From positions 1 through 64,000 of IMG/VR virus record IMGVR_UViG_3300028833_000067: 64,000 bases of DNA. One strand, written 5' to 3'. The notes under the pieces are model-generated. The model made no database searches, was not told where the DNA came from, and worked only from the letters and a program-made list of their open reading frames with translations. The stretch is from a virus. Lineage: Duplodnaviria; Caudoviricetes. The position numbers were made by a program, and so were the translations under genes. Below, piece after piece: positions 2,343 through 64,000 of this stretch (its first letter is position 1; every line of letters starts with the position of its first letter).

Positions 2343-2765
2343 ATGAAATAGCTTGATTTTATCCCAAATTAGAAGCATATTACTATTCACCGAGAAATGG
2401 TTAGAGATTCTAAAAAGCAAGAAAGACCATATTTAATTATGTATAGTGATAATATAATTGAGGCTATGCATAGATTAACTCCTAATGCTTTTAAAATTTA
2501 TATTTATTTATGTACTTTTAGATCTTATATGACAATGGCTTATAGCCCAGAATATATATCATAGCATTTAAATATGTGTAGAGATACTGCGAGAAAAGCT
2601 CTAAAGGAACTTGAAGAAAATGGATATTTATATTTAGGAGAAAATCAATATAAATTTTATTTTTATGAATCTCCTGAAATAATAAAGCAAGAAATGGTAG
2701 CAGATTATCAAGAACGAATTAAACAATTACAAGATATGATTTTAGCAATATAGGTAAAGGAGTGA
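2343..2765 (+). CDS. Winged-helix DNA-binding protein (TAG=Gln), 140 aa
   Basis: Absent from the ORF track. Open with TAG at 2349, 2370, 2562 and 2751. Contains LTPNAFKIYIYL...SPEYISQHLNMCRDTARKALKELEENGYL (wHTH pattern). AAGGAG SD, ends TGA. Confidence 0.8.
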
Positions 2766-2769
2766 GAAT

Positions 2770-4842
2770 ATGATAAAAAATGTAGACTTTCAAAAAACGA
2801 CTGAAGAAGCATTTTTAAAATATGCAGCATCAGTAGCACAAGAACGTGCACTACCCGATGTACGTGATATGCTAAAAATCGGTTTGCGGCAAGGTCTATA
2901 TGCTCAGTTTACAAATAAGCTCACTCATAAGGATAAGTTTCAGAAAGCACAAAAGAGCGTAGCTTCGGCCATGTCTCAATCATATGTTCATGGTGATGTA
3001 GCAATGTATGACGCTCTTATTCGTGCGGCCAGACCATGGTCAAGCCGCTATCCGCTAGAAGATGTACAAGGTAGTTATGGTAATCCTTCATCTCCCGATA
3101 GCCATGCGGCCGCTCGTTATGTAGAAATGAAGTCTAGTGAAGTTTCAGACTTCATGTTTGACGGCCTAAAGAAAAATGCCATTACAGAATGGTACTGGAA
3201 TTATGATGATTCAGAACAAATTCCATCTGTATTTCCTTCTATTGGATATTGGAATATTGTAAATGGTTGTCAAGGTATCGCGGTAGCAATGGCAACATCT
3301 GTACCTCAATTTAATCTTAAAGAGGTTAATGATGCTCTTATTAAAATTATTAAAGACCCTTCAGTCAGCTTTGATCAAATTTATTGTGCTCCTGACTTCG
3401 CTACAGGCGGTATTCTTACAAATGCTGCTGAAGTAAAAGATAGTTTACGAGTTGGGCGAGGTAAATCTATACGCTTGCGCGCGAAAATAACTTATCAGCC
3501 TAAAGAAAATATGCTTCAAGCAACAGAGCTTCCATATGGAGTATTTACTAATACTGTAATGGATCAGCTTGCATCACTGGTAAATGAAGACCCAGATTAT
3601 GGTATTGATAAGGTTATTGACCATACAAAGAAAACTGCTGATATTCGTATTTATCTTTCCAAAGGACAGAATCCAGATAAAATGATTGCCAAGTTATATC
3701 ATGATACTTCACTTGAAAATCATTTTTCTGTAAATATGATTCTTTTGGATAAAGGGCGATTCCCGAAAGTATTTGGTTGGCGCGAAGCATGCGATGCTTA
3801 TATTGCTCATATTAGAGAATGTAAGCGTAATATAATTGAATTTGATTTAAATAAAGCTCTCGCGCGCGAAAACATCATTAATGGCTTACTAATTGCCTTA
3901 GCTAATATTGATGATATCGTTGCTATTATCAAAGGTAGTGATAGTCCAAAGGATGCTGCCGCAGCATTGATAGCAAAATACAAATTCAATAAAGAGCAGG
4001 TTGATGCGATTTTAGCTATGAAACTATCCTCTCTATGCAGACTTGACGGCGTAAAATTAAATGATGAGCTAGCAGAACTTACTAGGTTTATAGCGGACTG
4101 TCGCTACCTATTATCTGAGCCTACTGCTTTAGATGAAAAATTAATTGAAATACTAAATTTAGTATCTCAAAAATTTGGTGACGCAAGACGAACGCAAATC
4201 ACTAATACGCTTGGTGATGAAGAAGAACCTGAAGAAATTGAAGAACAAGATATCGCTGTTATTTATAATGGAAAGACAATTAAGCTTGTTGAAAAAGGTA
4301 AAGAAGCTAAGTTCAAACAGACTATTATATACACAACAAATCTTGGCTCACTTACATTGATTACTGATGCAGGAAAAATGTATAATATTTCTCTTAGTAA
4401 GTTAAAGTTGGATAAAGAATATAAAATAACTGATGTAGCTGATATTGGAGGAGAACATCCGCGCCTACTGATTGATACTATGAGTTTTAATGCTTATCAG
4501 TCTTTAACTTGTATTACTAAGAAAGGTTTTATCAAGAAAAGCCATATTGGAGAATACGTTGCTCGCGCGAAAAAAGGTGTAGCAATTAACAAGATGGATG
4601 ATGATGATAGCATTGTAGAAATTATTCTAAGTAGCGATGATGATGATAGAGTAGTTGTTATTAGTAATAATGATTATTACAACTGTTATCCTCTAAGTGA
4701 TTTAAGTTATACTGGGCGTACAACCAAAGGTGTAAAAGCAATTAAGCTTAATACCGATGAATATGTAAAGGAAGCTAAGTGGGTAGGAGATAATACATAT
4801 AAAATTACCGGTCGAGCGGTAAAAGGAGTAAAGAATGGATAA
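2770..4842 (+). CDS. gyrA: Type IIA DNA topoisomerase subunit A (GyrA/ParC-like)
   Basis: ERALPDVRD, YVHGD, catalytic AAARY, GIAVAMAT, PDFATGG, short beta-pinwheel CTD (GRTTKGV). No TAG. Confidence 0.95.
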   Translation: MIKNVDFQKTTEEAFLKYAASVAQERALPDVRDMLKIGLRQGLYAQFTNKLTHKDKFQKAQKSVASAMSQSYVHGDVAMYDALIRAARPWSSRYPLEDVQGSYGNPSSPDSHAAARYVEMKSSEVSDFMFDGLKKNAITEWYWNYDDSEQIPSVFPSIGYWNIVNGCQGIAVAMATSVPQFNLKEVNDALIKIIKDPSVSFDQIYCAPDFATGGILTNAAEVKDSLRVGRGKSIRLRAKITYQPKENMLQATELPYGVFTNTVMDQLASLVNEDPDYGIDKVIDHTKKTADIRIYLSKGQNPDKMIAKLYHDTSLENHFSVNMILLDKGRFPKVFGWREACDAYIAHIRECKRNIIEFDLNKALARENIINGLLIALANIDDIVAIIKGSDSPKDAAAALIAKYKFNKEQVDAILAMKLSSLCRLDGVKLNDELAELTRFIADCRYLLSEPTALDEKLIEILNLVSQKFGDARRTQITNTLGDEEEPEEIEEQDIAVIYNGKTIKLVEKGKEAKFKQTIIYTTNLGSLTLITDAGKMYNISLSKLKLDKEYKITDVADIGGEHPRLLIDTMSFNAYQSLTCITKKGFIKKSHIGEYVARAKKGVAINKMDDDDSIVEIILSSDDDDRVVVISNNDYYNCYPLSDLSYTGRTTKGVKAIKLNTDEYVKEAKWVGDNTYKITGRAVKGVKNG

Positions 4843-5230
4843 GAAATATATAACATTATTTAAGGATTTGGCACAAGCGACTGCGGCTTCTGCCGAATCA
4901 GTAATGGAATATAATAGAAGCTAGAATGATGAAAAAGGCTTGTCCACTGCTACAATTATGCGTGATGATTTTCAAGCATTAGTAGATACAATTCAAGAAG
5001 CAGGTGATAATTATGCACCTACGCAACCTGAAGCTGCGCGATTATTAGTGGGCGCAATGATAATGGTAAATCAATTACAAGATAAAATAAATGCATTGCA
5101 TAAGGCTATTACTGGTTATTAGACAGATGTAATTCCAAAGCTACAAGAAATTGTAGACAAGGCGGGTTCAGATAATGAACTTGCGCGAAAAATGGCAAAT
5201 GAAAAATTTATTATTGAAGAAAAAGAATAA
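4835..5230 (+). CDS. Helical hypothetical protein (TAG=Gln), 131 aa
   Basis: ATG with AAGGAG SD. Two in-frame TAGs (4922, 5120) flank track fragment 4940-5122. Ends TAA. Confidence 0.75.
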
Positions 5231-5234
5231 TTAT

Positions 5235-5263
5235 TTGACATTTTATAAAATTTAATATATACT
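5235..5263 (+). promoter_or_regulatory. Sigma-A/70 promoter
   Basis: TTGACA-17 nt-TATACT. Confidence 0.85.
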
Positions 5264-5370: not shown

Positions 5371-5745
5371 ATGCATATGACAGTTAATAGTGAGCGCGTA
5401 CTAAATTTTTTAAAGGAACATTATGGTCAGGAATTTTCTAAGAATGAAATTAAGGATGCTCTAGGGATTTCTTTGAGCGCAGTTATTGGTAGTATTAATC
5501 CTCTTGAAAAGAATGGCTATACTCGTATTACTCGTACAGAAGTAGTTGAACTAGAACCAGCAACTGAGACTCGGAAAGCTAAGACTAAGGAAGTTAAGTA
5601 TCATACACTAACTGAAGCTGGCCTTGCCTACGATCCAGTAGCTGAAGAACAGGCTAAGCTCGCCGCAAAGCAGGCAGAAAAGGAACGCAAGGCCGCAGAA
5701 AAAGCAGCTGCGAAGGCCGCAAAGGAAGCAGAAGCAGAATTTTAA
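5371..5745 (+). CDS. Winged-helix DNA-binding protein with Lys/Ala-rich tail
   Basis: RVLNFLKEH...NEIKDALGISLSAVIGSINPLEKNGY...YHTLTEAG (wHTH pattern). Start may be 5377. Confidence 0.7.
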   Translation: MHMTVNSERVLNFLKEHYGQEFSKNEIKDALGISLSAVIGSINPLEKNGYTRITRTEVVELEPATETRKAKTKEVKYHTLTEAGLAYDPVAEEQAKLAAKQAEKERKAAEKAAAKAAKEAEAEF

Positions 5746-5781: not shown

Positions 5782-6684
5782 ATGAAAAGTATTAATATTC
5801 AGGCAACAAATAAACTAAATCTAGCAGGTACTCTAATGGATGTAACCTTCGGAGATGGTAAGCTATCTGATGGTCGTCCATATCAGCGTGCAACGGTAAC
5901 AGTTCGTGTTACTCAGACTTATGGCGGAAAGGAAGAAACTAGTGATGTACAGGTTGGTATGTTCGCAACTGAGTATACATCTACTGGTAAGAATAATCCT
6001 GCCTGGAAGAGCCTAAATGATCTAAAGCTAATGAAGACGGCACAGAATGTTGGTATTGATCATGCATCTCATGTACGTCTAACAGGCGCTTCTCTACAGG
6101 AAAATAACTTTGTATCTCGTACTGGACAGCTAATTAATGGTTGGCAGATTCGTGGTTCATTTATTAATGAGGCTCGTGTTGCAGATGTAGCATCTTTTGT
6201 AACTGATATCTTTATTATGGATATGCATGATGAAGTAGATCGTGAAGGTGATACTACAGGCCGTCTAGTGATTAAGGGTGGTATTGTACAGTATGGTGGA
6301 AAGCTCGACGTAGTTGAGTTTATTGTTGAAGCTCCCGATACTGTTGAATATATTTCTCGTAATTGGGAAACCAATGGTACAGTTACCGTTAAGGGCCGTA
6401 TTCGTGTTCTTTCTCAGGAAGAGGAAGTACAGTCTAGCGGCTGGGGTGAAGATGTACCAGAAACCACAACTAAGTTTGTGCGTGAGCTAATTATTACTAC
6501 TGGTGATGATGAATGTAAGGAAGAAGATTTTGCATATGATCCAGTAGAAATTAAGAAGGCATTTAATGAACGTAAGGCGGCAATTGAGCAGATGCAGATT
6601 AATGCTCGCGCTCATACTACAAAGCAGGGCGCTGGTAGTGCTAATGCCGCAGAAGCTTCCTCTAAGAAGTATGATTGGGAGTAA
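5782..6684 (+). CDS. Putative single-stranded DNA-binding protein (two OB-like halves)
   Basis: OB-type motifs (LAGTL, TVTVKGRI), acidic/aromatic C-terminus YDWE, next to a Sak4-like ATPase. Confidence 0.65.
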   Translation: MKSINIQATNKLNLAGTLMDVTFGDGKLSDGRPYQRATVTVRVTQTYGGKEETSDVQVGMFATEYTSTGKNNPAWKSLNDLKLMKTAQNVGIDHASHVRLTGASLQENNFVSRTGQLINGWQIRGSFINEARVADVASFVTDIFIMDMHDEVDREGDTTGRLVIKGGIVQYGGKLDVVEFIVEAPDTVEYISRNWETNGTVTVKGRIRVLSQEEEVQSSGWGEDVPETTTKFVRELIITTGDDECKEEDFAYDPVEIKKAFNERKAAIEQMQINARAHTTKQGAGSANAAEASSKKYDWE

Positions 6685-7815: not shown

Positions 7816-8301
7816 ATGCAGATAACTAGAAAATGTGCTGGATGTAAAGGTGAATTTTATAAAGATGAATTAATTCAGTATGCATCTCTTAGTGGAAAAA
7901 CTACATATTGGTATTGTCCAACTTGTTATGAAGAAAAGTTAGCGCGAGAAAGATTCTCAAATAAAGTGTGTGAAATATTTGGAATTAAGAGTCCTGGGCC
8001 ACGTATTTGGACAGAGAGAAAACGTTTGAAAAATGAATATGGTTATACAGATGATGCAATTGTTGATTGTCTTGATTATATTTATAATGTATCAAAGAAA
8101 GACAAATTGTCTGAGTCATTGGCTTTGGTAGGACCACGTAGTATGGCAAATATGAAAGCTTGGCGTGCAGATAGACAGGCTCGCGCGAGTAGTATTGCGG
8201 CAGCAATTGCAAATACAGAGACACATGAATATGTAGTTCCTATTAAAGAAAACACTTCTAAGAAAAAAGAAATAAATCTTGATGATGCACTATTAGATTA
8301 A
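7816..8301 (+). CDS. Zinc-finger protein, possible helicase loader/replisome factor
   Basis: CAGC...CPTC, immediately upstream of the helicase. Confidence 0.55.
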   Translation: MQITRKCAGCKGEFYKDELIQYASLSGKTTYWYCPTCYEEKLARERFSNKVCEIFGIKSPGPRIWTERKRLKNEYGYTDDAIVDCLDYIYNVSKKDKLSESLALVGPRSMANMKAWRADRQARASSIAAAIANTETHEYVVPIKENTSKKKEINLDDALLD

Positions 8302-20466: not shown

Positions 20467-21411
20467 AAACTATTCGGATTGGGAGTCGCGTAAGTAATTA
20501 CGTGAAAAAAGAACCCCATTAAACGGGCAATCGTAATAAGATGGTAAGAAAGCCTAAACCAAATAAATGGCAAGGTAATCCCGTAGGATAAAATTTTTAG
20601 TAAAACAGAAGTTTTCACTAAAGTTCATTAGAAGCTTCTCCTACTATTTATATAGAAGGAGGTGGTCAAAATGGCCCGCAGAAAAATGAATGATAAATTA
20701 ATTCACAAAACTGAAATTAAAGAAGAACTAAGACTTATAAAAGGTAGCCAAACCGATTATATTACTCCAACTGGTAATGTTTATAAAGATTATGGAAATG
20801 ATTTATTCTATCATAAATCAGTATTTCCAAATAAGAATAATGGATATATGTATTGTGGAATCACTTATCCAGAAGGATAGCGGCAGCGACGAGTACATAT
20901 TTTAGTCGCAGAAGCTTATATTCCTAATCCAAATAATTATCCAGTAGTAATGCATTTAGATAATGATAAGACTAATTTAAATGTTAATAACTTACGTTGG
21001 GGTACGGTCGCGGAAAATACACAAGCGGCATTTGATGATGGTTTGGCCGAAAACGATAAGAGTTGGGAAGATTCTCAATCAATTCATGTTTGTGTCTTTA
21101 ATATGCAACAAGAATTATTAAATAAATATGGTTCAGTGAGTGAAGCTTCTAGACAATTAGGAGTTACAAAAACTACAATACTCAATCAATGTAACCATAA
21201 TGTGAAAACTAAGCCAAGATGCGGATATTATTTCCGTTATTTATCTGAATATGAAACTAAAGGTTTTGTTCTCTAACGACTATCGAAAGCAATAAAAGAA
21301 GTGAGTAGAGTAGCACATAAGTGCGAAAGATGGGGCTCCTGTTGAAAAATTACAGGATGAAAATATAGTCTAATCCCCTTATGAAATATCGGGAAACCGA
21401 GGGTTCAAATG
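20467..21411 (+). ncRNA. Group I self-splicing intron in nrdD (945 nt)
   Basis: Exon ACTCCT pairs with IGS GGGAGT (U-G at splice site). P3 CCCCAT/ATGGGG, P4 ACGGG/CCCGT, P7 GACTA/TAGTC, terminal G at 21411. Splicing restores YYTP|AENLC. Confidence 0.93.
20671..21276 (+). CDS. Intron-encoded HNH homing endonuclease, I-HmuI-like (TAG=Gln), 201 aa
   Basis: One TAG (20878) joins two track fragments. RVHILVAEAYIPNP..PVVMHLDNDKTNLNVNNLRW, C-terminal NUMOD1 (SVSEASRQLG...GYYFRY). Confidence 0.9.
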
Positions 21412-21882
21412 GCCGAAAATCTTTGCTATACAGCCATGAAGAAATTTAAGGCAAAATACGGCGAAATTCCAAATGTTTCCGACCATGAATATTTTACAAA
21501 TAGTATTCATGTGCCAGTATGGCATGACATTTCCGTATTTGATAAGATTGATATTGAAAGTCAGCTAACTGGATATTCTAGCGCAGGATGCATTACATAT
21601 GTAGAAGTTCCTTCTGGTGTAAAGAATAACATTCCCGCACTTGAAACAATAGTAAATTACGCTATGGATCACGACATACCTTATTTCGCTTTGAACGTGC
21701 CGCTAGATATGTGTAATGACTGCGGTTATCAGGATGAAATCGGTGAAACCTGTCCTGAATGTGGTAGTAAGAACATTTCAAGGCTTAGACGTGTAACCGG
21801 ATATCTTACTGGTTCCTATAAAGATGCTTTCAACTGGGGCAAGCAGAAAGAAGTTGAAGCAAGGGTTAAGCATATACACTAA
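21412..21882 (+). CDS. nrdD: Class III ribonucleotide reductase, exon 2
   Basis: AENLC, YFTNSIHVP, CxxC/CxxC Zn site, glycyl-radical RRVTGYL. Confidence 0.95.
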   Translation, partial: AENLCYTAMKKFKAKYGEIPNVSDHEYFTNSIHVPVWHDISVFDKIDIESQLTGYSSAGCITYVEVPSGVKNNIPALETIVNYAMDHDIPYFALNVPLDMCNDCGYQDEIGETCPECGSKNISRLRRVTGYLTGSYKDAFNWGKQKEVEARVKHIH

Positions 21883-22939: not shown

Positions 22940-22970
22940 AAAGTATAAAGAAATAAAGTGGTGATTGGAT

Positions 22971-24754: not shown

Positions 24755-24755
24755 G

Positions 24756-25356: not shown

Positions 25357-25373
25357 ATTTGAGGTGAAATTAT

Positions 25374-49200: not shown

Positions 49201-52200
49201 ATTTTCTTCTGTTTTTTCGGCCGCTTCTTCTTTTAATTTCTCAATTTTTTCTAATGTAGTAACTTGTAATCCATCTATAATTGCACCTATACCGCCCGCA
49301 AGAAAGCCACCAAACGCACCAATCGCTGCGCCCCATGGGCCAAATGCCAGACCCATTGAAGCTCCAGTGCCTGCCATAGAAATACCATTGCCAAGACCTG
49401 TATATATTTTTGATTTTTCTACGCCATTACCGCCAATACCTTGCCATCCTAAAATATTATCACCTAATTGATCTTTATGTCCTGCGCCTGCTGCAGTAAT
49501 CATTGTACCAAAAATACGTGCAGCTCCCGAGGCAACACCAATGCCTTTCATTACATTTAAAGAATATTTTCCACCGATATCAGTAGCTCCTCTCGCGGCA
49601 CCAGCCTTCTCTCTATCAGCAGACGCGGCATCTTTTGCGGCAGGTACTTTTTCTTGATCTGCTGTCTATGCACCTATCGCAGATGGGATTTTATTCTAAT
49701 CAGCGGTCGCTGCTCCTTCAGCAGGAACAATTTTAGATTGATCGGACACGGCAGCCTCTTCAGCTGCGGGTACTTTATTTTGATCTGCCTATGCAGCCCC
49801 TTCAGCTGGTGGGACTTTATTCTAATCCGCAACCGCAGCTTCTTCTGCAGGAGGGACTTTATTTTGATCTGCCTATGCAGCTTCTTCCGCAGGGAGAATT
49901 TTTTGCTAATCTGCATTTGCAGCCACCTCGGCTGATGGAACTTTATTTTGATCTGCCTATGCAGCTTCTTCTGCAGGAGGAACTTTATTTTTATCTGCCT
50001 GTGCAGCTTCATTTGCTGCAGCCGCGGCTTCCTATAATGCTGTATATAAATCATCAAATCCACTAGGCGTTTCAGCCAAACTAGCTAAAAAACGATCTAA
50101 TGCATTAAAATTAGCATTGCCCCCATTTACTCCCATCTCTGCGAGTAAGGATTGACGTATACTAGCATCACCTAAACTAGGATAATTACTTAAAATGTTT
50201 TCTAAAACATATGACGAACTCTAACCAGAAGTTCCAGTTAAGAAATTAGTCATAGCTCCAATATTATTAATTGGTACTACGGCTGCAGCAGGATTTGTCA
50301 CTGCAGTCGCGGACATAGCCATGCCCATATTAGCTGCATGTGTTCCATTAATTACTCCCATTGCTGCATCATATTCAGATGTATTGGGTTTAATATTAAT
50401 TATCTTATCTAATGGGGCCTAAATATCTTTAATTTTTTGTTCATATTCTTGATTTTCTATGGTAATTTTAGCTTTTCTCTCTGTTAGCCAATCTTTACCT
50501 ATTCCTAATAGGCTTTTGGTACCAGTGCCTAATCCAATAATATTCATTAATGTAGTAAGAACGCCAGATGTACCAAGTTTACCAATTGTGGTTATAATAC
50601 GAGTTAACCACTCATAGGCGCCCTTTAAATTATTTTCTATATGTAAATCTAAATATAACTATGAAAAAGCATTTTTTAATTGATTCGCTTTAGATTCAAG
50701 AGAATCCATTGTTTTTGCTGTTTGCACTATGCTAGTATTTTCTGCATTATTAGCAGTATCTATCGCGCGACTTAATTCATCATAGTTAGATACCAAAGCA
50801 ATAAAACGAGATTGCTATCTATTACCAGCCATAATTGTAGCAATATAACGTTGTGTATTATTATCTAATGAATCCCATTTTGCAGCTAATTCCATAATAA
50901 CATCATCAAAATCACGGAATTGACCACTTGCATCTTTAATAGAAATTCCAACAGATTTTAATGCGGTATCAACTTTATTAAATGCCACTTCTTCTCCATC
51001 GACATTAATTAAACTACTAGGAGATGCTTTCATTTCACCATAACGAGAAATAATAGATTTTAAAGCAGAACCAATATTTTGAGCAGATTCACGAGTAGTC
51101 TGAATCATAACGCTCATAAATGCAGAAGTACTTTGCAATGACATTCCAACATTCGCAGCAGAAGAAGCCGTCTTCTCCATAGCATTTGCTATTTCAGCAG
51201 AACTTACAGCGAATTTTGCTGCCAACGCACTATACGTATCAGTTACTGATTGTGCTTGAGTCATTTCAATTTTAAATGCACGAATAGCTACTGTCATGGC
51301 ATTAGCCGCATCGCTATACTCCATACCAGCAATTTTTGCCATTTTTAATGTCTCAGTAGTCAATTCCATAACTTGAGCCGTTTGTAAACCCTATTGATAG
51401 AAGATTTGAGAAACAGTATATACATCTTTTGTAGCAACACCATATTGCTATGCCGTAGCAGTATATTCACCTATTTTCCCCCATAATTCTTTCTATGACA
51501 TATTGGTAACAACTGCAATATTAGTTATATTCTTATCAAGTTCTTTTATATTATTAAAAGCATTTCGTACTGCCTATGTTACCTTACGAACAATAGCATA
51601 GATACCAATATATCGAGTAATAAAATTAGAAATACCCTACATTTTTCCGATTGCATCATCTAATGATTGTAATCGTGCTTTTCCTGCAGCAACTGCCGCA
51701 TTTAAATTATTAATCTCTGCTGTAGCGGCAGTAAATAAACCAGATAACTAAGGTGACCTTGCAACAGCATTAGTTAAAGCATCCTAATATTCTCTTAATT
51801 TCTATTGAGGTTCTTTTAATGCTTCAGCTATCTCATGTGCTTTTGCGGCAATTTCCTAATTGGGTAAATCAAAAATTTTATTTAAATTAGTATAAGCTCC
51901 TGCACGTGTAGTATCTTTATCAATATCAGCTTTTAATTTATCTACTTCAGCTTTCTAAGAAGCATAACTATTACGTAGCGATTCAATATTGCCTAGATTA
52001 TCGCCAAATAATACTTTTTTAGCTAATCCAGAATCTGTACCCATAGATTTAAGTACATCAGTCCAAGACATTTTAAGTTCAGTGGCTTGTTCTTTAATAC
52101 GTCTACGAATTGCCGTAATATCTTCCTAACTAAAACTAAACTATTCAGTAAGTTTAGATAGAAATGTATTCATTCCATTAAATCCGCCTTTAAATCCCGT

Positions 52201-52932
52201 GAAGCCTTTTTCATCAAAATTTAATGCGTCAGATAATGCTTGCTATACTTCATTTTTATTACCATTTTTATTAATAGCTTTAAACGCCTAACTAAAATAA
52301 TCTAATGCTCCCCACTGAGTAAATGCATTTTGGCCTGCCTAATTTTCATTTAATTGAGATATTTTAGTATTATATTCAGCAGTTTTTAATTCAATTGTCT
52401 AAATAACTCTATTCATGCCAATTTCAATTGCACGATAGAGTTCATCATAGCCCTGCTCAAGCATTTTTGCTGCTTTAGCAGGCTCAGCTACGTTTAGATT
52501 AGCTAAAAAATCCTAATTATTAATTAACTTATCTTTCTAAGTACCTTTAAAAGAAATTAAGCTATTTTGTAATTCTTGAATTCTAGCCTATAATGCAGTA
52601 ATCTAGCCACTTACATCATCAGGAATTTTTAAATCAGTAAAAGATAAATTCTTAGCAGTATTAGCAACTTTATTTAATCCCAATTCAACCTAATCAATAT
52701 CTTTCTAAATTGAAGAAAAATCTCCCTGTGTAGTTAAAGCAGTTTTTGCTTTTGCTGCAATCTAATCTAGACGTGTTAAAACCTTTCCTAATTCTTGATC
52801 AATCTTTTTCCCGCCTAATGAATTAGATAAAATATTCTTATCTGCAAACTACTTTAACTAATTCGCTATCTCCTACAAATTCTAAATTTGTATAGATACT
52901 GGAAGTTCAATGCCTTGTGTTGCCATCTCCAT
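37249..52932 (-). CDS. Tape measure protein (TAG=Gln), ~5227 aa
   Basis: Fourteen track fragments share one frame. TP901-type TMP core (ELTTETLKMAKIAG...TRESAQNIGSALKSIISR...IATIMAGNRQQSRFIAL), TM-like Gly/Ala segment, GExGPE motifs. GAAAGGAG SD. Start may be 52926. Confidence 0.88.
49606..50010 (-). repeat. 42-bp (14-aa) tandem repeat in tape measure, ~9-10 copies
   Basis: Unit approximately EEAAQADQNKVPPA. Confidence 0.9.
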
Positions 52933-52955
52933 CTCATCTCCTTTCATCCCATAAT

Positions 52956-52991: not shown

Positions 52992-53894
52992 TCAAATATC
53001 CCCGTCATCTGGTTCCCCTAAACGAGTTATTTCCATAATTAAATTTTTCTAATCCCCAACTGTTTCTGGCAATCCAATGATATTAAAAGTAGAAACGGTG
53101 GGATCGGCCCTTTCTCCCAGTCGTAAGTTAATATTACTTACAACCCTAACTTTCGGCATATACAAAATATTTGTATAATTTAAACCCTCATTTTCATCCT
53201 TTGAGTAAAACTTTGCTTCAAGCGCGAAAAGACCATTAAAACGTTCTTTTTGCACACTATAAATCAAGGCTTCGTGCTCATATTTATAGTAATAATCAAT
53301 CGTATATTTCCTATTATTTTCTACTGGCTCTTCAAAATTTTTATCCTTGGCTAACATAATGCGCCAATGGTCTGAATCATTAGCATCAACTACACTTATA
53401 TCCTTTCCATAAATTTTATTCTAAATTGTATCCCTATCATAATCAAATATGAATACTTTTTTAATTGGATAATTTACTGGTTTATGCTATAGCTCTACAT
53501 ATGGAAACTCTTTAATTTTTCCTTTAATTTCCTAAGATATAGTATTTTCAGCTAGAATTGATTCTATCATATGTACATACATAGGTTGTCTTTCTTTCTA
53601 TGATAAAACATTCGCGCCAAGTAAAATACTCATACCAACTGAAGACATTACCCCTTCTGTCATCTAAAACTGAACTTCGCCTCGCTCATCCCAAATAATG
53701 CGTGGCATATTTGCCCAGCCGCCGCGCGCGAATACTGGTCTATTTGATTCAGTTAATAATGACATATTCACATTATTAAAATATAGCACTGGTTCGTCTG
53801 CTTCAATATAACGTTCACCAAAATACATTGGCGCTTTCGCGCGAAGAGTTACCTCATAAAGTTCTTTATGGCCAAAATTTTGATCTAATATCAT
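52992..53894 (-). CDS. Minor tail-tube paralogue (TAG=Gln), 300 aa
   Basis: Joins two track fragments. Colinear similarity to the major tail protein (FGHKE/YGIKE, ARGGW..IIWD/AQGGW..IQWD, SNINL..DPT/SNVTI..DPS). Confidence 0.75.
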
Positions 53895-53955: not shown

Positions 53956-54957
53956 TTAAGGTGTTCCACCTTCGGAAGAACTAGAAGCGGCTAAAGAGCC
54001 ATAGTCATTACCACTCTGAGAAGCAGAAGCTTCATCAAGGTTATAACGAACTAGCTTCATCATTTCATTCTGGCCAGCTTCATTGGTAGAACGAAGTACA
54101 TTTAAAGTCATTTCAAATGTGGAAGGATCGCCTTCTGCCTGTAGGGTAATAGTAACATTGCTCTGTACCTTGGCCTTGTTAATGATGAACTGGAATGGTT
54201 CATCCTTACCGGTCTTTTCAGAACGCATGAATGTATCACCAACTACACGATAGGTGCCAGGGAAAGTATCTGGACTAATAGTTACTTCAACTGCACTCTC
54301 ATCGGTAGTAGAAGAAGTTACTACATCTTCCCAGAAAATACGAATCTGATCGCCTTCTACTGGGGCAGTTTCTTCATCAATACCAGCGGCAGGATTCTTG
54401 AACTTAATATTGTTAAGAGCTGTCATTACCTTAGCTGCTCCATTTGGATCATCTACTACAATCTGAGTACGAGTACCAGCTGTAGTGCTATTCATACCGC
54501 CGCCTAAGTTAATTAGACGAATTGGATGACCAAATGTGGCCTTAGGATATAGTACCTTTTTAGTTAAATGATCTACTGGAGCAGGAATAAGACCATTAGC
54601 TTTAGCTACAACCTGCTCAGTATGACGTACTATAACGGTCTCGCCTTCAACATTAGTCTTTTTAATAGCGCCACCAAGCATAAACCGTAAAGATTCTATA
54701 GACATTAGAGCGTCTTCTAGAGTAATATTGATTTCCTTACCATAGTCCCACTGAATTAGTTTTGGATTTCCCCAACCGCCCTGAGCTGCGGTATTTTCAG
54801 CAGTGGTTTCAATGGTGGAAACTTTTAGGGTATCTAGGAATAGAACGATGTCACCGGCATATACACCAGCGGCAGAGTCATTATCTAGAGCTTCAAAGTA
54901 AACGTTGGCTACTTCTTTTATGCCATACTTATCAAAAATATTAACGTTACTTGCCAT
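53956..54957 (-). CDS. Major tail tube protein
   Basis: Position, AAGGAGG SD, high-expression codon usage, GGWGNPKLIQWDYGKE and AEGDPSTFEM motifs, followed by a terminator. No TAG. Confidence 0.8.
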   Translation of the reverse strand: MASNVNIFDKYGIKEVANVYFEALDNDSAAGVYAGDIVLFLDTLKVSTIETTAENTAAQGGWGNPKLIQWDYGKEINITLEDALMSIESLRFMLGGAIKKTNVEGETVIVRHTEQVVAKANGLIPAPVDHLTKKVLYPKATFGHPIRLINLGGGMNSTTAGTRTQIVVDDPNGAAKVMTALNNIKFKNPAAGIDEETAPVEGDQIRIFWEDVVTSSTTDESAVEVTISPDTFPGTYRVVGDTFMRSEKTGKDEPFQFIINKAKVQSNVTITLQAEGDPSTFEMTLNVLRSTNEAGQNEMMKLVRYNLDEASASQSGNDYGSLAASSSSEGGTP

Positions 54958-58248: not shown

Positions 58249-58689
58249 TCACTTCTCTTCTGCGTCATGCTTCGCGGCAATAGCCTGAATTACATCAACA
58301 TCGCAGTATTTTTTAATTAGGGCCACAATACCCGCATTGGTGATCTTATGCTCTACAGCAAGAGTAACGGCACTTTCTTTTTCTGCATCAGTCGCATGTG
58401 GAATAAACTTAGCAAATGCAGTTACATCACCTTTAACTAACATCTTTTCAATTTCAGAAGCTTCAAATACATTTTCAACAACTTCTACTTGTTTTTCTTC
58501 TTCTAAACCATTAACCTTAATATAATGTCCATTAACAAGAGACATAAATCCAGTATCAAAAGTCATTTCTTCATATTCCTCATCACTGACTGGAATCTCG
58601 CGTCCTGGCATTAATTCACGATTAAAACGAATAGCCGGAAAATATAATGAAACTAAACTTGTACTAATATTTTTAATTGTAATAGCCAT
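58249..58689 (-). CDS. Hypothetical protein following major capsid protein
   Basis: 146 aa, AAGGAGG SD, no TAG. Confidence 0.75.
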   Translation of the reverse strand: MAITIKNISTSLVSLYFPAIRFNRELMPGREIPVSDEEYEEMTFDTGFMSLVNGHYIKVNGLEEEKQVEVVENVFEASEIEKMLVKGDVTAFAKFIPHATDAEKESAVTLAVEHKITNAGIVALIKKYCDVDVIQAIAAKHDAEEK

Positions 58690-58712
58690 AATTGTTCCTC
58701 CTTTTATCTCCG

Positions 58713-58749
58713 AAAAGAAATCTGGGAGGGAGGGATTACCTCCCTCCCA
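58713..58749 (-). terminator. Intrinsic terminator after major capsid gene
   Basis: TGGGAGGGAGG/CCTCCCTCCCA stem plus U-rich tract. Confidence 0.8.
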
Positions 58750-58761
58750 TTATATTACTAA

Positions 58762-59862
58762 TTAGTTAGTAATTGTAGTATTTGCCATTAATGCTGTATT
58801 TTCGGTTTCCCAACCACTACCCTGAGATAGTGCAGCATTGTAATAGATACCCCAATAGTTAGGAGTAGTAAATAGACCAACGCCAACCTTTACATAACCC
58901 TGTAGTACAAAGCTATTATCGCCCTCATGGTCATCCCACTCACGGAAGTAAGGAGAGCCTTCGAAAGCCATCTTAATAATCTTTTCCTTGCCAGCAGGTA
59001 GTACATAAGCAAAGGCAGGATTGAACTGTAGCTTAGTATTGGTTTCATCAGTCCAAGACTGTGGCATTACAACAACAGGAGTGCCATAGAACTTGCCAAT
59101 GTAACCACGATCACGGATTTCTTGCATATCAACATCAGATAGCTTTACTGTAGTGGTACTATTAACATTATATACTAATGCATTTACCATTTCAGCCGCG
59201 AACTCAGGAGTGCAATAAATAATTGGGCTGCCATAAGGAGCAACAGTGTTGCATAGTTTCTTCATAGCAGTAGGATTGAACTGATTGGTTGCAACCTTGT
59301 TGCGAGCTGGACGGCCAGCAGCATTCCAAGAATTGAGTAAGCAACCCTGAACCATTTCAAATAGACGATCAACAATACCTTCCTGGATGACTTCATAAAT
59401 ATCGGTCATGGATTCTAGACCATCGAGATAACGCTCGAAGTCTACATATCCAGCACCACCAATGGCCTGAATATATAGATCGAAACGATCACGATCTAGA
59501 CGGAAGGTTTCATAGTTACCAGATTCAGTGGCGCGAGTAACGAACTGCTTACCACGAATCTTGCCGCGAGTTACACGGAACTCTGGGCGCTGGCCCTGAG
59601 CATAATTCTTTACTTCAACGAACATATCAAGAGCACTCTTGACATTCTGTGGTAGAACTTCCTGTAGATTTTCTTCTAGTAGTTCAAATACATCTTCTTT
59701 ATTACGATTGAAGACGTGACGATTGAAGTGTACGCCATCCTTTGTCATTAGCTTGGCTAATTCATCACGGAGAGCGGCTTCATAATCATAATTTTCTGCT
59801 GCGAATTCAGCAGGAACGGCACGACCAAATACGCCGTTCATTAATACATGTAGCTTATTCAT
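58762..59862 (-). CDS. Major capsid protein
   Basis: About 366 aa, GGGAGG SD at 59871-59876, optimised codons, position after scaffold/decoration, GYIGKFYGTPVVVM. No TAG. Confidence 0.85.
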   Translation of the reverse strand: MNKLHVLMNGVFGRAVPAEFAAENYDYEAALRDELAKLMTKDGVHFNRHVFNRNKEDVFELLEENLQEVLPQNVKSALDMFVEVKNYAQGQRPEFRVTRGKIRGKQFVTRATESGNYETFRLDRDRFDLYIQAIGGAGYVDFERYLDGLESMTDIYEVIQEGIVDRLFEMVQGCLLNSWNAAGRPARNKVATNQFNPTAMKKLCNTVAPYGSPIIYCTPEFAAEMVNALVYNVNSTTTVKLSDVDMQEIRDRGYIGKFYGTPVVVMPQSWTDETNTKLQFNPAFAYVLPAGKEKIIKMAFEGSPYFREWDDHEGDNSFVLQGYVKVGVGLFTTPNYWGIYYNAALSQGSGWETENTALMANTTITN

Positions 59863-59877
59863 AAGTCGCACCTCCCA

Positions 59878-60480
59878 TTATCCTAGACTTACAATCTGAT
59901 ACTTAACGCCCTTTCCGCCGTTAGGTATAGTGTAGTATTTTACAACCTTTGCATAAGTGCCAGACTGTGGCTTAGTAGCAGTTAGCTGTGGAACAGGACT
60001 ACCAGCTACAGGAGCAACATACATAGGAGTAGTATCAATAGCATTTAATGCTGTCTCAAGAGCAGCAAAAGTAGCATATGTAGATTCATCATACTGTAAG
60101 CAGTTAGTGGTTACAGTATCGCCAAGACCAAAGATACCAACACGAGGATAATCCCCAGCGATCTTGCGGCCAAAGCGTTGTAGACCATAGTGTTCACGGT
60201 CATATTCTTTTTCTGTAGTATAAACAATACCAATGGGAGAATCGGTTGCAGCAGCAGGAGCATTAATAGCGCCAGCGGCCTTATCAGCAACAACCCACAT
60301 ACCATTTTCACAAGGATTGGCCTTGGTGAAAGCAGCTCCGAGAGGAGTCTGAGAAACTACCATACCAGTCTTTGGGAATGCTACCTGGTTTAGTTCTAGG
60401 CTGGCATATAGCTTTTCATCGGGATCACGATGCTGATCAACTAGATCGCCCACAACATTAGTAATAGGAAATCTTGTCAT
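59878..60480 (-). CDS. Capsid decoration/minor capsid protein
   Basis: 200 aa between scaffold and capsid. LELNQVAF, ENGMW, GDTVTTN. No TAG. Confidence 0.65.
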   Translation of the reverse strand: MTRFPITNVVGDLVDQHRDPDEKLYASLELNQVAFPKTGMVVSQTPLGAAFTKANPCENGMWVVADKAAGAINAPAAATDSPIGIVYTTEKEYDREHYGLQRFGRKIAGDYPRVGIFGLGDTVTTNCLQYDESTYATFAALETALNAIDTTPMYVAPVAGSPVPQLTATKPQSGTYAKVVKYYTIPNGGKGVKYQIVSLG

Positions 60481-60493
60481 AGTTTATTCCTCC

Positions 60494-61138
60494 TTAGTTC
60501 TTGCGATATTTTTCCATAAATAACGCGAATTCATCAACAACGGGTTCTGGTAGTGGAACTACTTTGTTGTCAGCACTGCCAGCCATGTGTTTATCAGCAT
60601 AGCAAATTGCGAGTTTGCTCTTTAATTCATCAAGACTGAAATTATTCATTTCTTCACGAATTGGGCTGATTTCTTCCTCAGTTAAGTCAGTTGCGAACTG
60701 CTCAATTAAGGCATTTTTTTGTTCTACTTCTAAACGAGTGCGCTCGGCTTCATAGGTAGCAATCTCATTACGCAAGGTAGCTTCAGTCTCAGACGCGGAT
60801 GTTATCTGGGCCTCAAGTTCTTGAATACGAGTTTGAGCATTCTCATAATTAGTAGTCATTTCATTTAATTGATTCTCAAGCTCAGCGATACGAGCTTCAA
60901 AATCGGGTGCGGGTTCAGCCGCGGGTTCAGGCTCCGTAGCAGCTGGCTCTGCGGGCTCAGCCGCAGGTTCAACTGATTCAGCAGCAGATTCATCAGCAGC
61001 AAAATCTTCTGCTGGCTCTGCGGCTGGCTCTGCAGCTGGTTCGGCCGCAGGCTCCACTGGAGCTACTGGCTCCTGATTTACAGGTTCTTCCTGTACAGGA
61101 GTGGGTTCATTTACTTCGGGATTTACAACATTTTCCAT
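60494..61138 (-). CDS. Nested in-frame scaffolding protein, 214 aa
   Basis: Internal AGAAGGAGGGG SD just upstream of ATG 61138 (MENVVNPE...). Confidence 0.65.
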   Translation of the reverse strand: MENVVNPEVNEPTPVQEEPVNQEPVAPVEPAAEPAAEPAAEPAEDFAADESAAESVEPAAEPAEPAATEPEPAAEPAPDFEARIAELENQLNEMTTNYENAQTRIQELEAQITSASETEATLRNEIATYEAERTRLEVEQKNALIEQFATDLTEEEISPIREEMNNFSLDELKSKLAICYADKHMAGSADNKVVPLPEPVVDEFALFMEKYRKN

Positions 61139-61798
61139 TTGATGTTCCCCTCCTTCTGTTGGTTGTTTTTCAGCCTCTTCAACTTTAGCCTTCAAATCAG
61201 CCAATAGAGAAGAGAACTTTTCATATTGAGATGTATATGTATCATCATTCTTACTAAAGAAAGAAGATACAGAAAAACATGGTTCATGATCACCTATAAT
61301 ACATAAACCCATGATTTCAGCTTTGGTATAAACAAAATATTCAGTGTTATCAATATTTGCCCAATCGCCTTCAATTGAATTTATATCAAGTTCCATAGAT
61401 TGATGTTGTCCAATTACAAAATTGGCTTCATTGAAGTATTTAGTAAATAATACTACAGAAAAAACAGCATAATCGCGTTCTATTCCATCAGTATCTTTAA
61501 ATGGCTGCCAGCCATCAAACTATTCAACATAACCATAAGCGCTCGCAAGAGTTGGACCTGTATGACTTGCCCAACCTTGAGATTCAGGATCAAAAAATCC
61601 AACTACTGGAGTATCACCCTTAGTTGCGCTATTAATTAGCATTTCTGCAACATCATCCTTAATATAAGAACCATTGCGATTGCCATATTTAGTAAAAACG
61701 CCAACTTTTAATCTATTGAGGTTAGAAGAACCATTGATAGATTCAGCAGGAGACATTATAATAGCATTATCAAAATAAATAGGAATATTTCTTTTCAT
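60494..61798 (-). CDS. Prohead protease-scaffold fusion (TAG=Gln), 434 aa
   Basis: A single TAG (61520-61522) joins two fragments. NRNGSYI...QSMEL...GLCIIG..EPCF, then acidic PAAE repeats and coiled coil. Confidence 0.8.
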
Positions 61799-61814
61799 AA
61801 TATAATTCGCCTCC

Positions 61815-63359
61815 TTAACTCATACTATCAATATTTGCTTGCGTTTTTTGCGATCTATCTTCATCAGCAAGCGTTGGTCTTCCGCCCTTATTAGTGATGT
61901 CTTTCGGCTAACCTGAACTACTACTATTTTTTTCTCCAGAATTATTTTTTTTCTGAGAATTTTCATCACCAGATTGTGTATAAGATGATGATAATGGACG
62001 CATTTTTTCGCCTAAGTTTAAAAATTCATTTTCAAAGTCTACTGTGCTTACTAAGCTGCGTTGTTTAATTCCCATCGCAGCAGCAACACGCATTCTTGGA
62101 TAACCAAATTGCGCCATTGATAAGTAGTAATCTTTATAGTCTTTAATATTAAATTTTGTTACTGGTAAAATTTCAAAATCAAAAGTTAAACCTGTGCGAC
62201 TAAAGCGGCTATTAATTAAGAATTTAATCCAAGTAGCATATGCGTTCATGTATTCTTGCATTACGCTTTCTAAACGTTTAATAACATATGCTAAAGATGA
62301 ACTATTATCTGCATTAAAGAATAATTTACTACTTCCTAAAGAGTCCCATGCATTATCACTATATTTTTCAATACGACTATTTGCCTAGTTAGCTGCGGAG
62401 GAATCTTGTAAATTTTCTAATGTTGCATCTCCAAGCGTTGTTAATACATCTACTGTATCTAAGTCTTGTAGCATTGCGGCAATTCCAGCATGAATTTCCG
62501 CGATTTCATCTAATTCAAATACTAAATGACCATTGCTATCAGTAGGCATTTTATGAATTAATAACTTATATAGTTCATTTTCATCGCGCTTTTCTTCACG
62601 CTTTACAGCATCTTTCAATTTAGCAAGTTCAGGGATAGATGCTACAAGTAATGGTGTAGTGTCTTCTGAGAAGCAGAAAACAATTCCACCCGCACTTGCT
62701 GGTACCATTATCCATGGATCAGTTAATTTATTCGCCTTATATAGTTTCCATCCTTGTTGAATAGCAGGCGGGAAATTAAGTAAAGCAGCATCACGTATTT
62801 TCTCATCTTCATATTTAGTTAAGAAATAAGTAATATTAAACTCTAAAATACAAAGATTATTAAAGTCTTTTAATCGTGTGCGGCAATATTCCTATGGTAA
62901 ATCCTATACAACCACTTTATTACCGTGTTCTTGTAGAATACCATAATATATCCCCGATTTTAACCATTCGCGCGTAATACGTGTCAATGTATTCTTAATA
63001 TCTAAAGCTTCAACAAAACTACAAGCATTATAGAATGCTTTTATAATTTGCGTTTTAGAACCTTTACCAGTTTCATAGATAGGAGTTACTAGTGTTTCAT
63101 ATAAAAAGAGTGTTGCAAGAAAATTGATATTATTGCGGTAGCGACCATTTGTTCTATAATAATATCGAGATAATTCACGAATAGCTGAAATCTCACCAGA
63201 GCGAATTATTTCTTCTATTTCTTCTATAGTGAAATCTCTATTAATTACACTATTCGTTCTATGGCCGCCCCAGCGAGAGAGGCGTTCACGAGAATCAATA
63301 GGAACATAATTAATACGGAACTATGGTCTTGCAAACATAGCTTTAAAATCCTAACTCAC
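61815..63359 (-). CDS. Portal protein (TAG=Gln), 514 aa
   Basis: GTG start after AGGAGGTG. IRELSRYYYRTNGRY, QDLPQEYCRTR, PLSSSYTQSG...GGRP. Lies between terminase and protease. Confidence 0.85.
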
Positions 63360-63364
63360 AAAAA

Positions 63365-64000
63365 TCACCTCCTACTTTTAGGAGTAAAGAAACCAAATGA
63401 ACCAATATTCTTTTTTCTGCGTTTAAAAATTTCTTTATCTTCATAATATTTAATTCTATACATCGCATATTCTAGTGCGCTAAAACGGTCTTTTTCAATT
63501 GATTTTGAAATGCGTTCGACTTTATATTTATTCTCTACGCCAGTGGGCTTTAGCCGCAAATTGTTAAGTTCATCCATAAGACGAGAAGTCATTTCATATG
63601 GTAATAAAAATACTCGTCTATCATATGATGTCATTCTCTAACCTTTTTTTGTTTTAATTAACTTATCTTTAACAACACGTTCATGCGCCAAAAAAGAAGT
63701 TGATCCGTTATTAACAGCAGTAAGAAATGCCGCATGAATTTCATCTTCATTAGAGGCAGAAGCTTTTATATCGTATATAATAGCATTATATTTAATATTA
63801 GGTTCTTCCACTTCATCATGCATTTCTGGCGGTAAGTGGTTCTCATTATTAAAGGTGAAGTATGCGGGAAATTGTTCTCCTGTTTTTGCGTCAAAAGAAG
63901 GTAAAACCATCGCATCCATAAGACCGATACCTGGGCCGTTACCATCAATAACAATCTCTTTAGGATGATATAATTCAATTAATTTTTTAATACGTGGCGC
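63365..64000 (-). CDS. terL: Terminase large subunit, C-terminal nuclease part (partial; TAG=Gln)
   Basis: IVIDGNGPGIGLMD, KDRFSALEYA. One TAG at 63638. Directly upstream of the portal. Confidence 0.85.

Follow-up and report, generated by a model that had tools for sequence, protein, structure and literature searches.

The contig is 176,887 bp long (~177 kb), and the window analysed here is its first 64 kb. Judged from its sequence, it represents an uncultured, siphovirus-like phage that is distant kin of SPbeta. The portal identity to any GenBank phage record is only 24-29%; the top match among deposited phage records is MT836163.1, an unannotated 12-kb human faecal contig, and phAss-1 ranks second. 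The phage is probably of rumen origin; its metagenome relatives appear, from their sample ids, to be rumen samples. The host, as we infer it, is probably a standard-code Clostridia bacterium, and the sole lead is a related TAG-recoded phage contig that was binned with an Acutalibacteraceae MAG. The window contains the following features:

66-22914, plus strand: replication and nucleotide-metabolism arm (Pfam hits), readable under the standard code
2343-2765, plus: small DnaD/replication-initiator-like gene between gyrB and gyrA, 4 in-frame TAG
22965-23999, plus: GIY-YIG homing-endonuclease-like gene, 8 TAG (PF01541, E 1.6e-9; PHROG 314)
23996-24754, plus: HNH/homing-endonuclease-like gene, 6 TAG including 24332 and 24587 (PHROG 374/559/9084)
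25374-26138, plus: dUTPase (PF00692, E 3e-25, residues 123-253; PDB dUTPases, E 2e-27)
26135-26881, plus: RuvC-like Holliday-junction resolvase, 8 TAG (PF02075; PHROG 827/159)
27314-35242, minus: tail-fibre-like protein, 2642 aa, 56 TAG, no TAA or TGA in frame
35267-37243, minus: distal-tail-like protein, 658 aa, 14 TAG (weak Sipho_tail match)
37249-52947, minus: tape-measure ORF, 5232 aa, 125 TAG, 142 CAA, 26 CAG, no TAA or TGA
49712-50010, minus: 42-bp (14-codon) tandem repeats in the tape-measure gene (Tandem Repeats Finder, period 42, 7.1 copies)
52992-53894, minus: tail-tube paralogue, 6 TAG (PHROG 2729, E 1.6e-17)
53956-54957, minus: tail-tube (major tail) protein, YomU family, 0 TAG, 0 CAA, 10 CAG (PHROG 2729, E 3.6e-48)
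58249-61798, minus: TAG-poor head-gene island (58249-58689, capsid, 59878-60480, 60494-61798)
58762-59871, minus: major capsid protein, YonB family, 0 TAG, 1 CAA, 13 CAG
61815-63368, minus: portal, 6 TAG (PHROG 2739, E 7e-69)
63365-64000, minus: large terminase, 3' part (PHROG 2 and PHROG 9)

The products of the early arm include GyrB, GyrA, an AAA_24 ATPase, a DnaB-like helicase, a RecJ-like nuclease, a DnaE-type Pol III alpha and NrdD. Its genes of at least 100 aa contain 10 TAG versus 247 CAA and CAG codons. The ten TAG codons are confined to four small genes and to gene starts or ends that are ambiguous, and the named replisome genes have none; the split between early and late genes is therefore not clean. 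For example, residues 22-104 of the 2343-2765 product match PHROG 186/270 (E 1e-10), a match that spans the TAG at codon 74. As the first gene to contain TAG, 2343-2765 marks the start of the range given in the original prediction.

Beyond the early arm, TAG interrupts genes whose pieces join in frame when it is read as a sense codon. This observation, made in the original prediction for the portal, terminase, tape measure and RuvC genes, is confirmed, with 6, 5, 125 and 8 in-frame TAG, respectively; the complete terminase gene extends beyond the window end (63365-65149 of the contig, 594 aa). ORFs of at least 300 aa cover 0.077 of the region 22915-64000 under code 11 and 0.824 with TAG as sense, but only 0.100 with TGA and 0.106 with TAA as sense. 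The frames of 5232, 2642 and 658 aa (125, 56 and 14 TAG) opened in this way have no in-frame TAA or TGA, whereas the two off-frames of the 5232-codon ORF have 204 and 702; interruption of this frame by TAG only is far beyond chance. Tape-measure PHROGs match its residues ~116 to 1247 (best E 7e-49), and its C-terminal half has no match in the PHROG comparison. The tail-fibre-like protein has a weak C-terminal Peptidase_S74 chaperone match (E 2.9e-4), slightly below the Pfam cutoff, and the RuvC-like resolvase has 777 near-full-length relatives in public protein sets. The two TAG codons of the dUTPase, 12 and 46, are part of an N-terminal extension, and its catalytic domain is TAG-free, corresponding to the standard-code ORF 25596-26138. 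The genes of at least 80 aa end in 128 TAA and 50 TGA; the earlier statement that every gene ends in one of these holds, but it is true by construction. Within the last five codons of genes, 13 TAG were observed versus ~10 expected, and with no pile-up there nothing suggests that TAG still serves as a stop.

The emphasis originally placed on essential genes stands insofar as such genes do carry TAG. However, being essential or late does not by itself make a gene a recoded one: the capsid, the tail tube and three neighbouring genes, which sit within the late block, are TAG-free. The capsid was assigned by a protein-atlas score of 0.99 to PF27364 YonB capsid clusters (30/30 hits), and the tail tube by a score of 0.98 to PF27173 YomU_Tube clusters. 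Only one TAG was found among 251 Gln-type codons of the capsid orthologues (20 relatives) and one among 97 of the tail-tube orthologues (13 relatives); in orthologues of the tail-tube paralogue, TAG makes up 57% of such codons. The head-gene island has a single TAG, in 60494-61798, and, pooled with the tail-tube gene, it displays a high-expression codon bias (AAG > AAA, CGT far > AGA, CAG > CAA). Given this avoidance and bias in the capsid and tail-tube genes, TAG behaves like a slow, non-optimal Gln codon.

Then, could TAG be mainly a stop, read through with low efficiency, so that most products are truncated and the long ORFs are rarely completed? An RF-1-domain gene was not found on the contig, nor is an RF1 inhibitor visible; host RF1 should consequently compete at every TAG, and avoidance of TAG in highly expressed genes is what would be expected if its decoding were costly. 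However, the tape measure and the tail fibre are essential single-polypeptide proteins, and if read-through were as high as 99% at each codon, no more than ~28% of tape-measure chains would be finished; decoding must therefore be near-complete. In addition, TAG accounts for up to 42-61% of the Gln-type codons in late genes and is not concentrated at gene ends. We regard leaky termination as very improbable, although it survives best among the alternatives.

The identity of the residue is reflected in the tape-measure repeats. Across the seven units, position 8 reads AAA, CAA, TAG, CAA, TAG, CAA, TAG, and position 5 reads CAG, TAG, AAT, TAG, GTT, TAG, ACC. The reported alternation of GAT CAA AAT with GAT TAG AAT at position 8 is thus real, and the TAG at 49957-49959 and the CAG at 49999-50001 (minus strand) occupy equivalent positions of successive 42-bp units, in frame with 37249-52947. 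In codon alignments with 34 related viral contigs, TAG pairs with TAG 374 times, CAA 282 times and CAG 76 times, the next residue being Lys (62), where counts within the clade are non-independent events. CAA, which is two mutations from TAG, outscores every single-mutation neighbour, and therefore the link is at the amino-acid level. The substitution-profile log-likelihood is -1779 for Gln versus -2995 for the runner-up residue (Lys -2998, Glu -3155, Ser -3315, Leu -3833, Tyr -3972), and Gln is the plurality residue at 27/57 TAG sites.

Distant homologs also bear on this point. The TAG codons at 24332 and 24587 do sit, as had been claimed, in WKC[q]CDCG and EYNGE[q]HY of the 23996-24754 gene. 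When the latter (codon 198) was masked, its column was Gln in 104 of 111 distant homologs, with no E or K; codon 113 of the same gene lies in a K/Q/R column, and of three cultured phages that use the standard code, two (Enterococcus and Lactococcus phages) have Q at portal codon 155. At several TAG sites the distant homologs have K, R, N or L instead, as expected of variable columns. The Gln content of late genes rises from 2.6% to 4.5% once TAG is counted, that of early genes being 3.5%. Glutamine is accordingly visible among clade members as well as in distant homologs, in agreement with the original prediction, and these comparisons support the reading of TAG as Gln (NCBI table 15) in most late genes.

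There are no tRNA genes in the 64-kb window, which, as had been stated, lacks the suppressor and a release factor. A tRNA(CUA) does lie elsewhere on the contig, at 140,729-140,988, but it is hidden from tRNA finders because it is split by a putative 175-nt group-I-type intron. The uninterrupted tRNA(CUA) of one relative (G003) matches the contig at 100% in two pieces around the 175-nt insert. U is the last base of the 5' exon and G that of the insert, and the interruption falls between U35 and A36, so that the CUA anticodon would exist only after splicing. The Rfam Intron_gpI match (36.5 bits, E 7e-9) is below the gathering score (50 bits), and an Rfam full-library scan of the region missed the intron. 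The same intron, with compensatory changes in its stems, is present in a second relative (G005); the core is compact, the 3' hairpin is GNRA-capped, and an internal GGAG guide G can pair with the exon-end U. Group I introns occur in the anticodon loops of bacterial tRNA-Leu(UAA), tRNA-fMet, tRNA-Ile and tRNA-Arg (Rfam RF00028). The predicted intron resembles them in its location inside the loop, its terminal U and G and its compactness, but it is very small, scores under the Rfam threshold and interrupts a suppressor tRNA, between its anticodon positions 35 and 36.

At 85 nt and with a long extra arm, the suppressor itself differs from normal tRNA-Gln; its length recalls the class-II-like bacterial tRNA-Tyr, -Ser and -Leu. 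ARAGORN, going by the anticodon only, labels it 'Pyl', and some TAG columns in distant homologs are mostly K, R or N. TAG might then encode Glu (a non-discriminating GluRS with no amidation), Lys, Tyr, Ser, Leu or pyrrolysine. However, the likelihoods and the near-invariant Gln column given above argue against these residues, as does the tRNA. Its acceptor has U1-A72, G2-C71 and G73, which are of glutamine type, although it has C-G instead of G-C as its third pair; the phage's own tRNA-Gln(UUG) likewise has U1-A72 and G73, and in another relative (G002) the entire suppressor acceptor stem is identical to that of its tRNA-Gln. The extra arm repeats the anticodon loop of a Gln tRNA (CUCUGAA, with the anticodon CUG). 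We consider a different residue slightly less probable still than leaky termination. A search of the contig revealed no Glu/Gln-tRNA synthetase gene. The supE-type amber suppressor of E. coli (glnV44) is a weak, standard-length tRNA-Gln whose anticodon changed from CUG to CUA. The present tRNA would similarly insert Gln at UAG through a glutamine tRNA framework with CUA, in competition with RF1, and would differ in its 85 nt, its extra arm loop and its need for splicing.

Genome decay, in which the TAGs would be nonsense mutations, the virus defective or misassembled and the long joined frames not expressed, could account for late genes fragmented under code 11 on a linear contig without terminal repeats, but it is already refuted in practice, since CheckV completeness is 98%, only TAG interrupts 5232 + 2642 + 658 + 517 codons while the off-frames carry hundreds of stops, TAG pairs chiefly with CAA rather than with its one-step neighbours, and TAA, TGA and frameshifts, named beforehand as signs of decay, are absent here and from the portal genes of 16/16 relatives, which have 2-12 in-frame TAG at shifting positions.

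As stated in the original prediction, TAG-to-Gln recoding occurs in gut phages (10.1101/2021.08.26.457843; PMC9523058; PMC10607447). Code 15 has been described in crAss-like, Lak and 'gemstone' clades (Borges et al., 10.1101/2021.08.26.457843; Yutin et al., PMC7886860), with peptide proof in crAss-like phages (Peters et al., PMC9523058). The present phage shares with them the concentration of TAG in structural and late genes, early genes compatible with the standard code, a phage-encoded tRNA(CUA), hosts thought to use the standard code, a large genome and an animal-gut habitat; the preprint (10.1101/2021.08.26.457843) includes cattle samples and a cattle-derived Agate clade. However, it belongs to another lineage, in which the capsid and tube proteins are SPbeta-like and the polymerase is DnaE. 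Its suppressor is intron-split with an extra arm, and it has no RF2 gene, which two TAG-recoded Agate phages have.

A similar case is phAss-1, of the proposed Phassvirus (OQ749652; Babkin et al., 2023, PMC10607447; NCBI 'Caudoviricetes code 15 clade'). This large gut phage of siphovirus type has TAG in the genes for the terminase, portal, tape measure and tail fibre. It encodes a Pol III alpha polymerase, a tape measure of great length and many tRNAs including tRNA-Sup(CTA), with no dedicated synthetase, and its predicted hosts are Clostridia. The two differ in portal sequence (27.6% identity), genome size (136 kb vs 177 kb here), suppressor genes (three intact vs one intron-split), tape-measure length (3149 vs 5232 aa) and habitat (human gut vs apparent rumen).

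We consider it very probable, from the sequence evidence combined, that Gln recoding, TAG in late genes, a phage-encoded intron-split tRNA(CUA) and the slowness of TAG as a codon belong together. The replisome genes, being TAG-free, could be translated by the unmodified host. The phage tRNA, its CUA anticodon formed by splicing out the 175-nt intron, would be charged with Gln through its glutamine-type acceptor features and decode TAG. Accumulation of the mature suppressor may then allow full-length translation of the TAG-bearing late set, namely the tail fibre, tape measure, portal, terminase, connectors, resolvase and homing nucleases, with only TAA and TGA left as stops; the splicing, charging and timing in this scheme are inferred. 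The two bulk virion proteins, capsid and tail tube, shun TAG across the clade and use CAG-rich high-expression codons instead. The preprint 10.1101/2021.08.26.457843, in which the word 'capsid' is absent, does not discuss capsid and tube genes that lack TAG throughout a clade. TAG-to-Gln recoding (code 15) in phages is already well known, and to it the present phage adds capsid and tail-tube genes that are free of TAG.

The viral contig, whose first 64,000 bases form the window, is a linear sequence of 176,887 bp that lacks terminal repeats and is 98% complete as estimated by CheckV. The genes considered here are arranged as follows, and the GC skew changes sign where the coding strand switches.

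66-22,914, plus strand: replication arm, with GyrB, GyrA, an AAA_24 ATPase, a DnaB-like helicase, a RecJ-like nuclease, a DnaE-type Pol III alpha and NrdD
20662-21276, plus strand: HNH-like gene, 1 TAG
22,965-27,273: GIY-YIG and HNH nucleases, dUTPase and RuvC resolvase
22965-24754, plus strand: GIY-YIG and HNH-like genes, 8 and 6 TAG, respectively
27,314 onward, minus strand: virion block, with a 2642-aa tail fibre, a distal-tail-like protein, a 5232-aa tape measure, tail-tube proteins, head genes, the portal and the large terminase

Fragmentation of the late genes by TAG, from which the original prediction started, is confirmed. The region from 22.9 to 64 kb is shattered under the standard code (code 11) and becomes a tightly packed phage module once TAG is treated as a sense codon. 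ORFs of at least 300 aa cover 0.077 of this region under code 11 and 0.824 with TAG as sense, and the long-ORF coverage hardly increases when TGA or TAA is made the sense codon instead. The 5232-aa, 2642-aa, 658-aa and portal frames contain 125, 56, 14 and 6 in-frame TAG codons, respectively, and not a single TAA or TGA. Chance as the source of these open frames is excluded by the stop counts, since the other two frames of the 5232-codon ORF carry 204 and 702 TAA and TGA codons. Decay, of which frequent TAA, TGA or frameshifts in the same ORFs had been named as the sign, would scatter all three stops together with frameshifts, yet TAG alone interrupts the long frames, and this explanation is therefore excluded as well. 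The notion that TAG still acts as a stop was dropped, because there is no clear excess of TAG close to gene ends.

The reading of TAG as glutamine (genetic code 15) is supported by five lines of evidence that agree at the sequence level, namely codon alignments, likelihood, distant homologs, repeats and composition. For the codon alignments, the genes at 40-80 kb were compared with 34 related IMG/VR contigs, whose portals are 55-96% identical. Among 1156 aligned pairs, the partner of TAG is TAG in 374, CAA in 282 and CAG in 76, and the next residue is Lys with 62. The one-step neighbours of TAG are infrequent in the same pairs (TAT 10, TAC 7, AAG 22, GAG 7, TTG 12, TGG 7 and TCG 6). CAA is two substitutions away from TAG, yet it is far commoner than all of these neighbours, and the equivalence therefore lies at the protein level. 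Substitution-profile likelihoods from these alignments are -1779 for Gln, followed by His, Lys and Glu at -2995 or lower, and Gln is the plurality residue at 27 of 57 TAG sites, while every other residue leads at no more than 6.

A residue other than Gln at the TAG columns of homologs would have spoken against the reassignment; Gln was found within the clade and also farther away. An exhaustive search with the HNH-like protein (23996-24754, plus strand) gave 150 representatives of a very large family. With the TAGs of the phage gene masked as X, the TAG column of EYNGE[q]HY is occupied by Gln in 104 of 111 distant sequences, and that of WKC[q]CDCG by K, Q or R. In addition, two of three cultured phages with the standard code have Q opposite TAG 155 of the portal. 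The alternation of TAG with CAA and CAG reported for the 14-codon repeats of the tape measure was also seen, position 8 of the unit reading AAA, CAA, TAG, CAA, TAG, CAA, TAG, and position 5 reading CAG, TAG, AAT, TAG, GTT, TAG, ACC; the four positions cited earlier (49957-49959 and 49999-50001 in these repeats, 24332 and 24587 in the HNH-like gene) are all correct and in frame. As for composition, CAA and CAG together make up 2.6% of codons in late genes against 3.5% in early genes, and the late value becomes 4.5% when TAG is counted.

Several further references were tried and set aside. A word-indexed protein search with RuvC gave in-clade proteins only (77-88% identity), the human-gut phage phAss-1 itself uses code 15, and the good PDB matches of dUTPase leave its TAGs outside the aligned domain. 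PDB sequence searches with RuvC, terminase, capsid and tube proteins gave nothing usable.

As predicted, the suppressor tRNA lies outside the window, which contains no tRNA, and is found at contig positions 140,729-140,988. Neither ARAGORN nor the Rfam tRNA model detected a CUA tRNA on the whole contig, and lenient ARAGORN settings gave noise only; the gene was located by comparison with intact genes of relatives. Three complete related contigs (G001-G003) each have one uninterrupted tRNA(CUA) of 85-93 nt directly upstream of their own tRNA cluster, and that of G003 matches this contig at 100% in two pieces, 140,729-140,762 and 140,937-140,988. The only tRNA(CUA) gene of the phage is present as two exons, and the spliced sequence is called as tRNA(cta). 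The 175-nt insert (plus strand) interrupts the anticodon between U35 and A36, with the junctions ...CUCU|AGGC...AUAG|AAAA. The 5' exon ends in U, which would form the U-G pair in P1, the last base of the insert is G, and a GGAG within it is able to pair with the exon CUCU. The Rfam group I model RF00028 matches over model positions 1-253 with 36.5 bits (E 7e-9), short of the 50-bit gathering score, and the match is absent from the full-library scan. Another relative, G005, carries the same insert, 84% identical, in a tRNA whose acceptor stem differs; three hairpins show compensatory changes between the two contigs, and the precursor has a folding z-score of -3.75. The insert is probably an intron of the group I type.

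The spliced suppressor has U1-A72, G2-C71 and G73, as in the tRNA-Gln(UUG) of the phage, and in G002 the whole acceptor stem is common to the suppressor and tRNA-Gln. Its long extra arm contains CUCUGAA, which copies the Gln(CUG) anticodon loop; such a loop (CUG or UUG), closed by at least 3 bp, occurs in 16 of 29 distinct long tRNA(CUA) genes collected from IMG/VR. The release factor had likewise been placed outside the window, and no gene with an RF-1 domain (PF00472) was found on the whole contig; a contig search for Glu/Gln-tRNA synthetase (PF00749) was also negative. Charging of the suppressor and competition with RF1 would therefore have to rely on host enzymes. It should be noted that the contig has 13 tRNAs by ARAGORN at 141-154 kb plus a tRNA-Ala(UGC) at 151,896-151,966 by Rfam, while complete relatives have 19-28; several contig tRNAs seem to be hidden by inserts.

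The use of TAG is far from uniform. GyrB, GyrA, helicase, RecJ, DnaE and NrdD are devoid of it, and the early/replication genes can be read in the standard code with the exception of four small TAG-bearing genes in that arm. The 10 TAGs of the arm fall in small genes, among them an HNH gene and the DnaD-like gene at 2343-2765, or at gene boundaries that are ambiguous. All three homing-endonuclease-like genes in or beside the arm, two HNH and one GIY-YIG, contain TAG, in agreement with a published proposal that recoding postpones the production of nucleases. In late genes, TAG constitutes 32-61% of Gln-type codons, and five genes of the late block contain no TAG or almost none.

53956-54957, minus strand: tail tube, YomU family
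58249-58689, minus strand: late-block gene
58762-59871, minus strand: capsid, YonB family
59878-60480, minus strand: late-block gene
60494-61798, minus strand: late-block gene

Orthologues of these five genes in 13-29 relatives have 19 TAGs among 1027 Gln-type codons, whereas TAG makes up 31-61% of these codons in neighbouring genes. The preferred codons of the five genes are CAG, AAG and CGT, and ATA, AGA and TTA are avoided, which is the classic high-expression bias; since genes with such a bias avoid it, TAG has the behaviour of a slow synonymous codon for Gln. The recoding preprint (10.1101/2021.08.26.457843), in which the word "capsid" does not occur, does not contain this nuance. The capsid and tube assignments are leads from protein-atlas families rather than alignments, with scores of 0.99 to PF27364 clusters (YonB capsid) and 0.98 to PF27173 clusters (YomU tube); AlphaFold models from shallow alignments have pLDDT of 47 and 43, respectively.

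Four early-arm genes on the plus strand (5371-5745, 5782-6684, 7816-8301 and 21409-21882) use only CAG for Gln (23 CAG, 0 CAA) and have the same AAG/CGT bias as the capsid gene, from which the surrounding replisome genes differ; presumably, they encode very highly expressed early proteins. For dUTPase (25374-26138, plus strand), both TAGs are in a 74-codon N-terminal extension, and the catalytic domain by itself forms a standard-code ORF as well (25596-26138). The gene could therefore yield a short form before the code switch and a long one afterwards.

The TAG recoding is a trait of the clade as a whole. Each of the 16 portal orthologues examined has 2-12 in-frame TAGs at positions that vary by genome, and no other stop. 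The nearest cultured relatives of the portal are from large Bacillota siphoviruses of Enterococcus, Lactococcus and Mammaliicoccus (24-29% identity), and the nearest described uncultured one is from phAss-1. A 47-kb contig (JAZQTG010000088.1), whose capsid is 70% identical and whose capsid gene is TAG-free with CAG only, was binned with an Acutalibacteraceae MAG (Clostridia); its ORF coverage rises from 0.55 to 0.91 with TAG as sense. This contig is possibly a binning artefact and serves as a host lead only, alongside the Bacillota hosts of cultured relatives. A cow-rumen-4 RNA motif (RF02948) at contig 140,285-140,351 (plus strand; 57.6 bits, above the gathering score) fits a rumen origin. 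The clade appears to be rumen-derived and probably infects Clostridia.

Recoding of TAG to Gln in late genes of gut phages with phage suppressor tRNAs is well established in the literature (10.1101/2021.08.26.457843; PMC7886860; PMC9523058; PMC10607447), with peptide proof in crAss-like phages by metaproteomics (PMC9523058), and phAss-1 (PMC10607447) is filed by NCBI under "Caudoviricetes code 15 clade". Every sequence-level hallmark of this class is present here, and the phage is a new, distant member of the class and not a new kind. As in SPbeta-like large siphoviruses, a YonB capsid, a YomU tail tube and a YorL-type Pol III alpha are present, the DnaE being 35% identical to SPbeta-group YorL over 99% of its length. 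Tail length usually scales at 1.5 A per tape-measure residue, so the 5232-aa protein (37249-52947, minus strand) predicts a tail of about 0.78 um; the 3149-aa tape measure of phAss-1 would give a far shorter one. Tape-measure families match only the first ~1250 residues, and the C-terminal half has no family matches.

A tentative reading, possible rather than probable, is that in this clade the recoded codon acts both as a dosage filter and as an early/late switch. TAG would be a deliberately slow Gln codon, dependent on one intron-split, second-armed suppressor tRNA. It would be kept out of proteins of which each virion needs hundreds to thousands of copies (capsid, tail tube and head-island genes) and loaded into low-copy or dangerous late proteins, such as the 5232-aa tape measure, tail fibre, portal, terminase, resolvase and homing nucleases, so that the amount of mature suppressor tRNA available may limit their output.

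As such, reassignment of TAG to Gln is established biology that a specialist would find unsurprising. Features of note are the hidden suppressor tRNA, the length of the tape measure (5232 aa) and the absence of TAG from capsid and tube genes throughout the clade. Under code 11, annotation of the contig and of its many relatives is badly wrong (ORFs of at least 300 aa cover about 8% of the late region, versus 82% with TAG as sense), and pipelines would class the phage as "recoded without a suppressor", because the tRNA is invisible to standard finders. A large, abundant clade joins the known code-15 phages, and its most abundant virion proteins avoid TAG cleanly in all parts of the clade, which is relevant to the question of whether recoding acts as a timer, as a throttle or as both.
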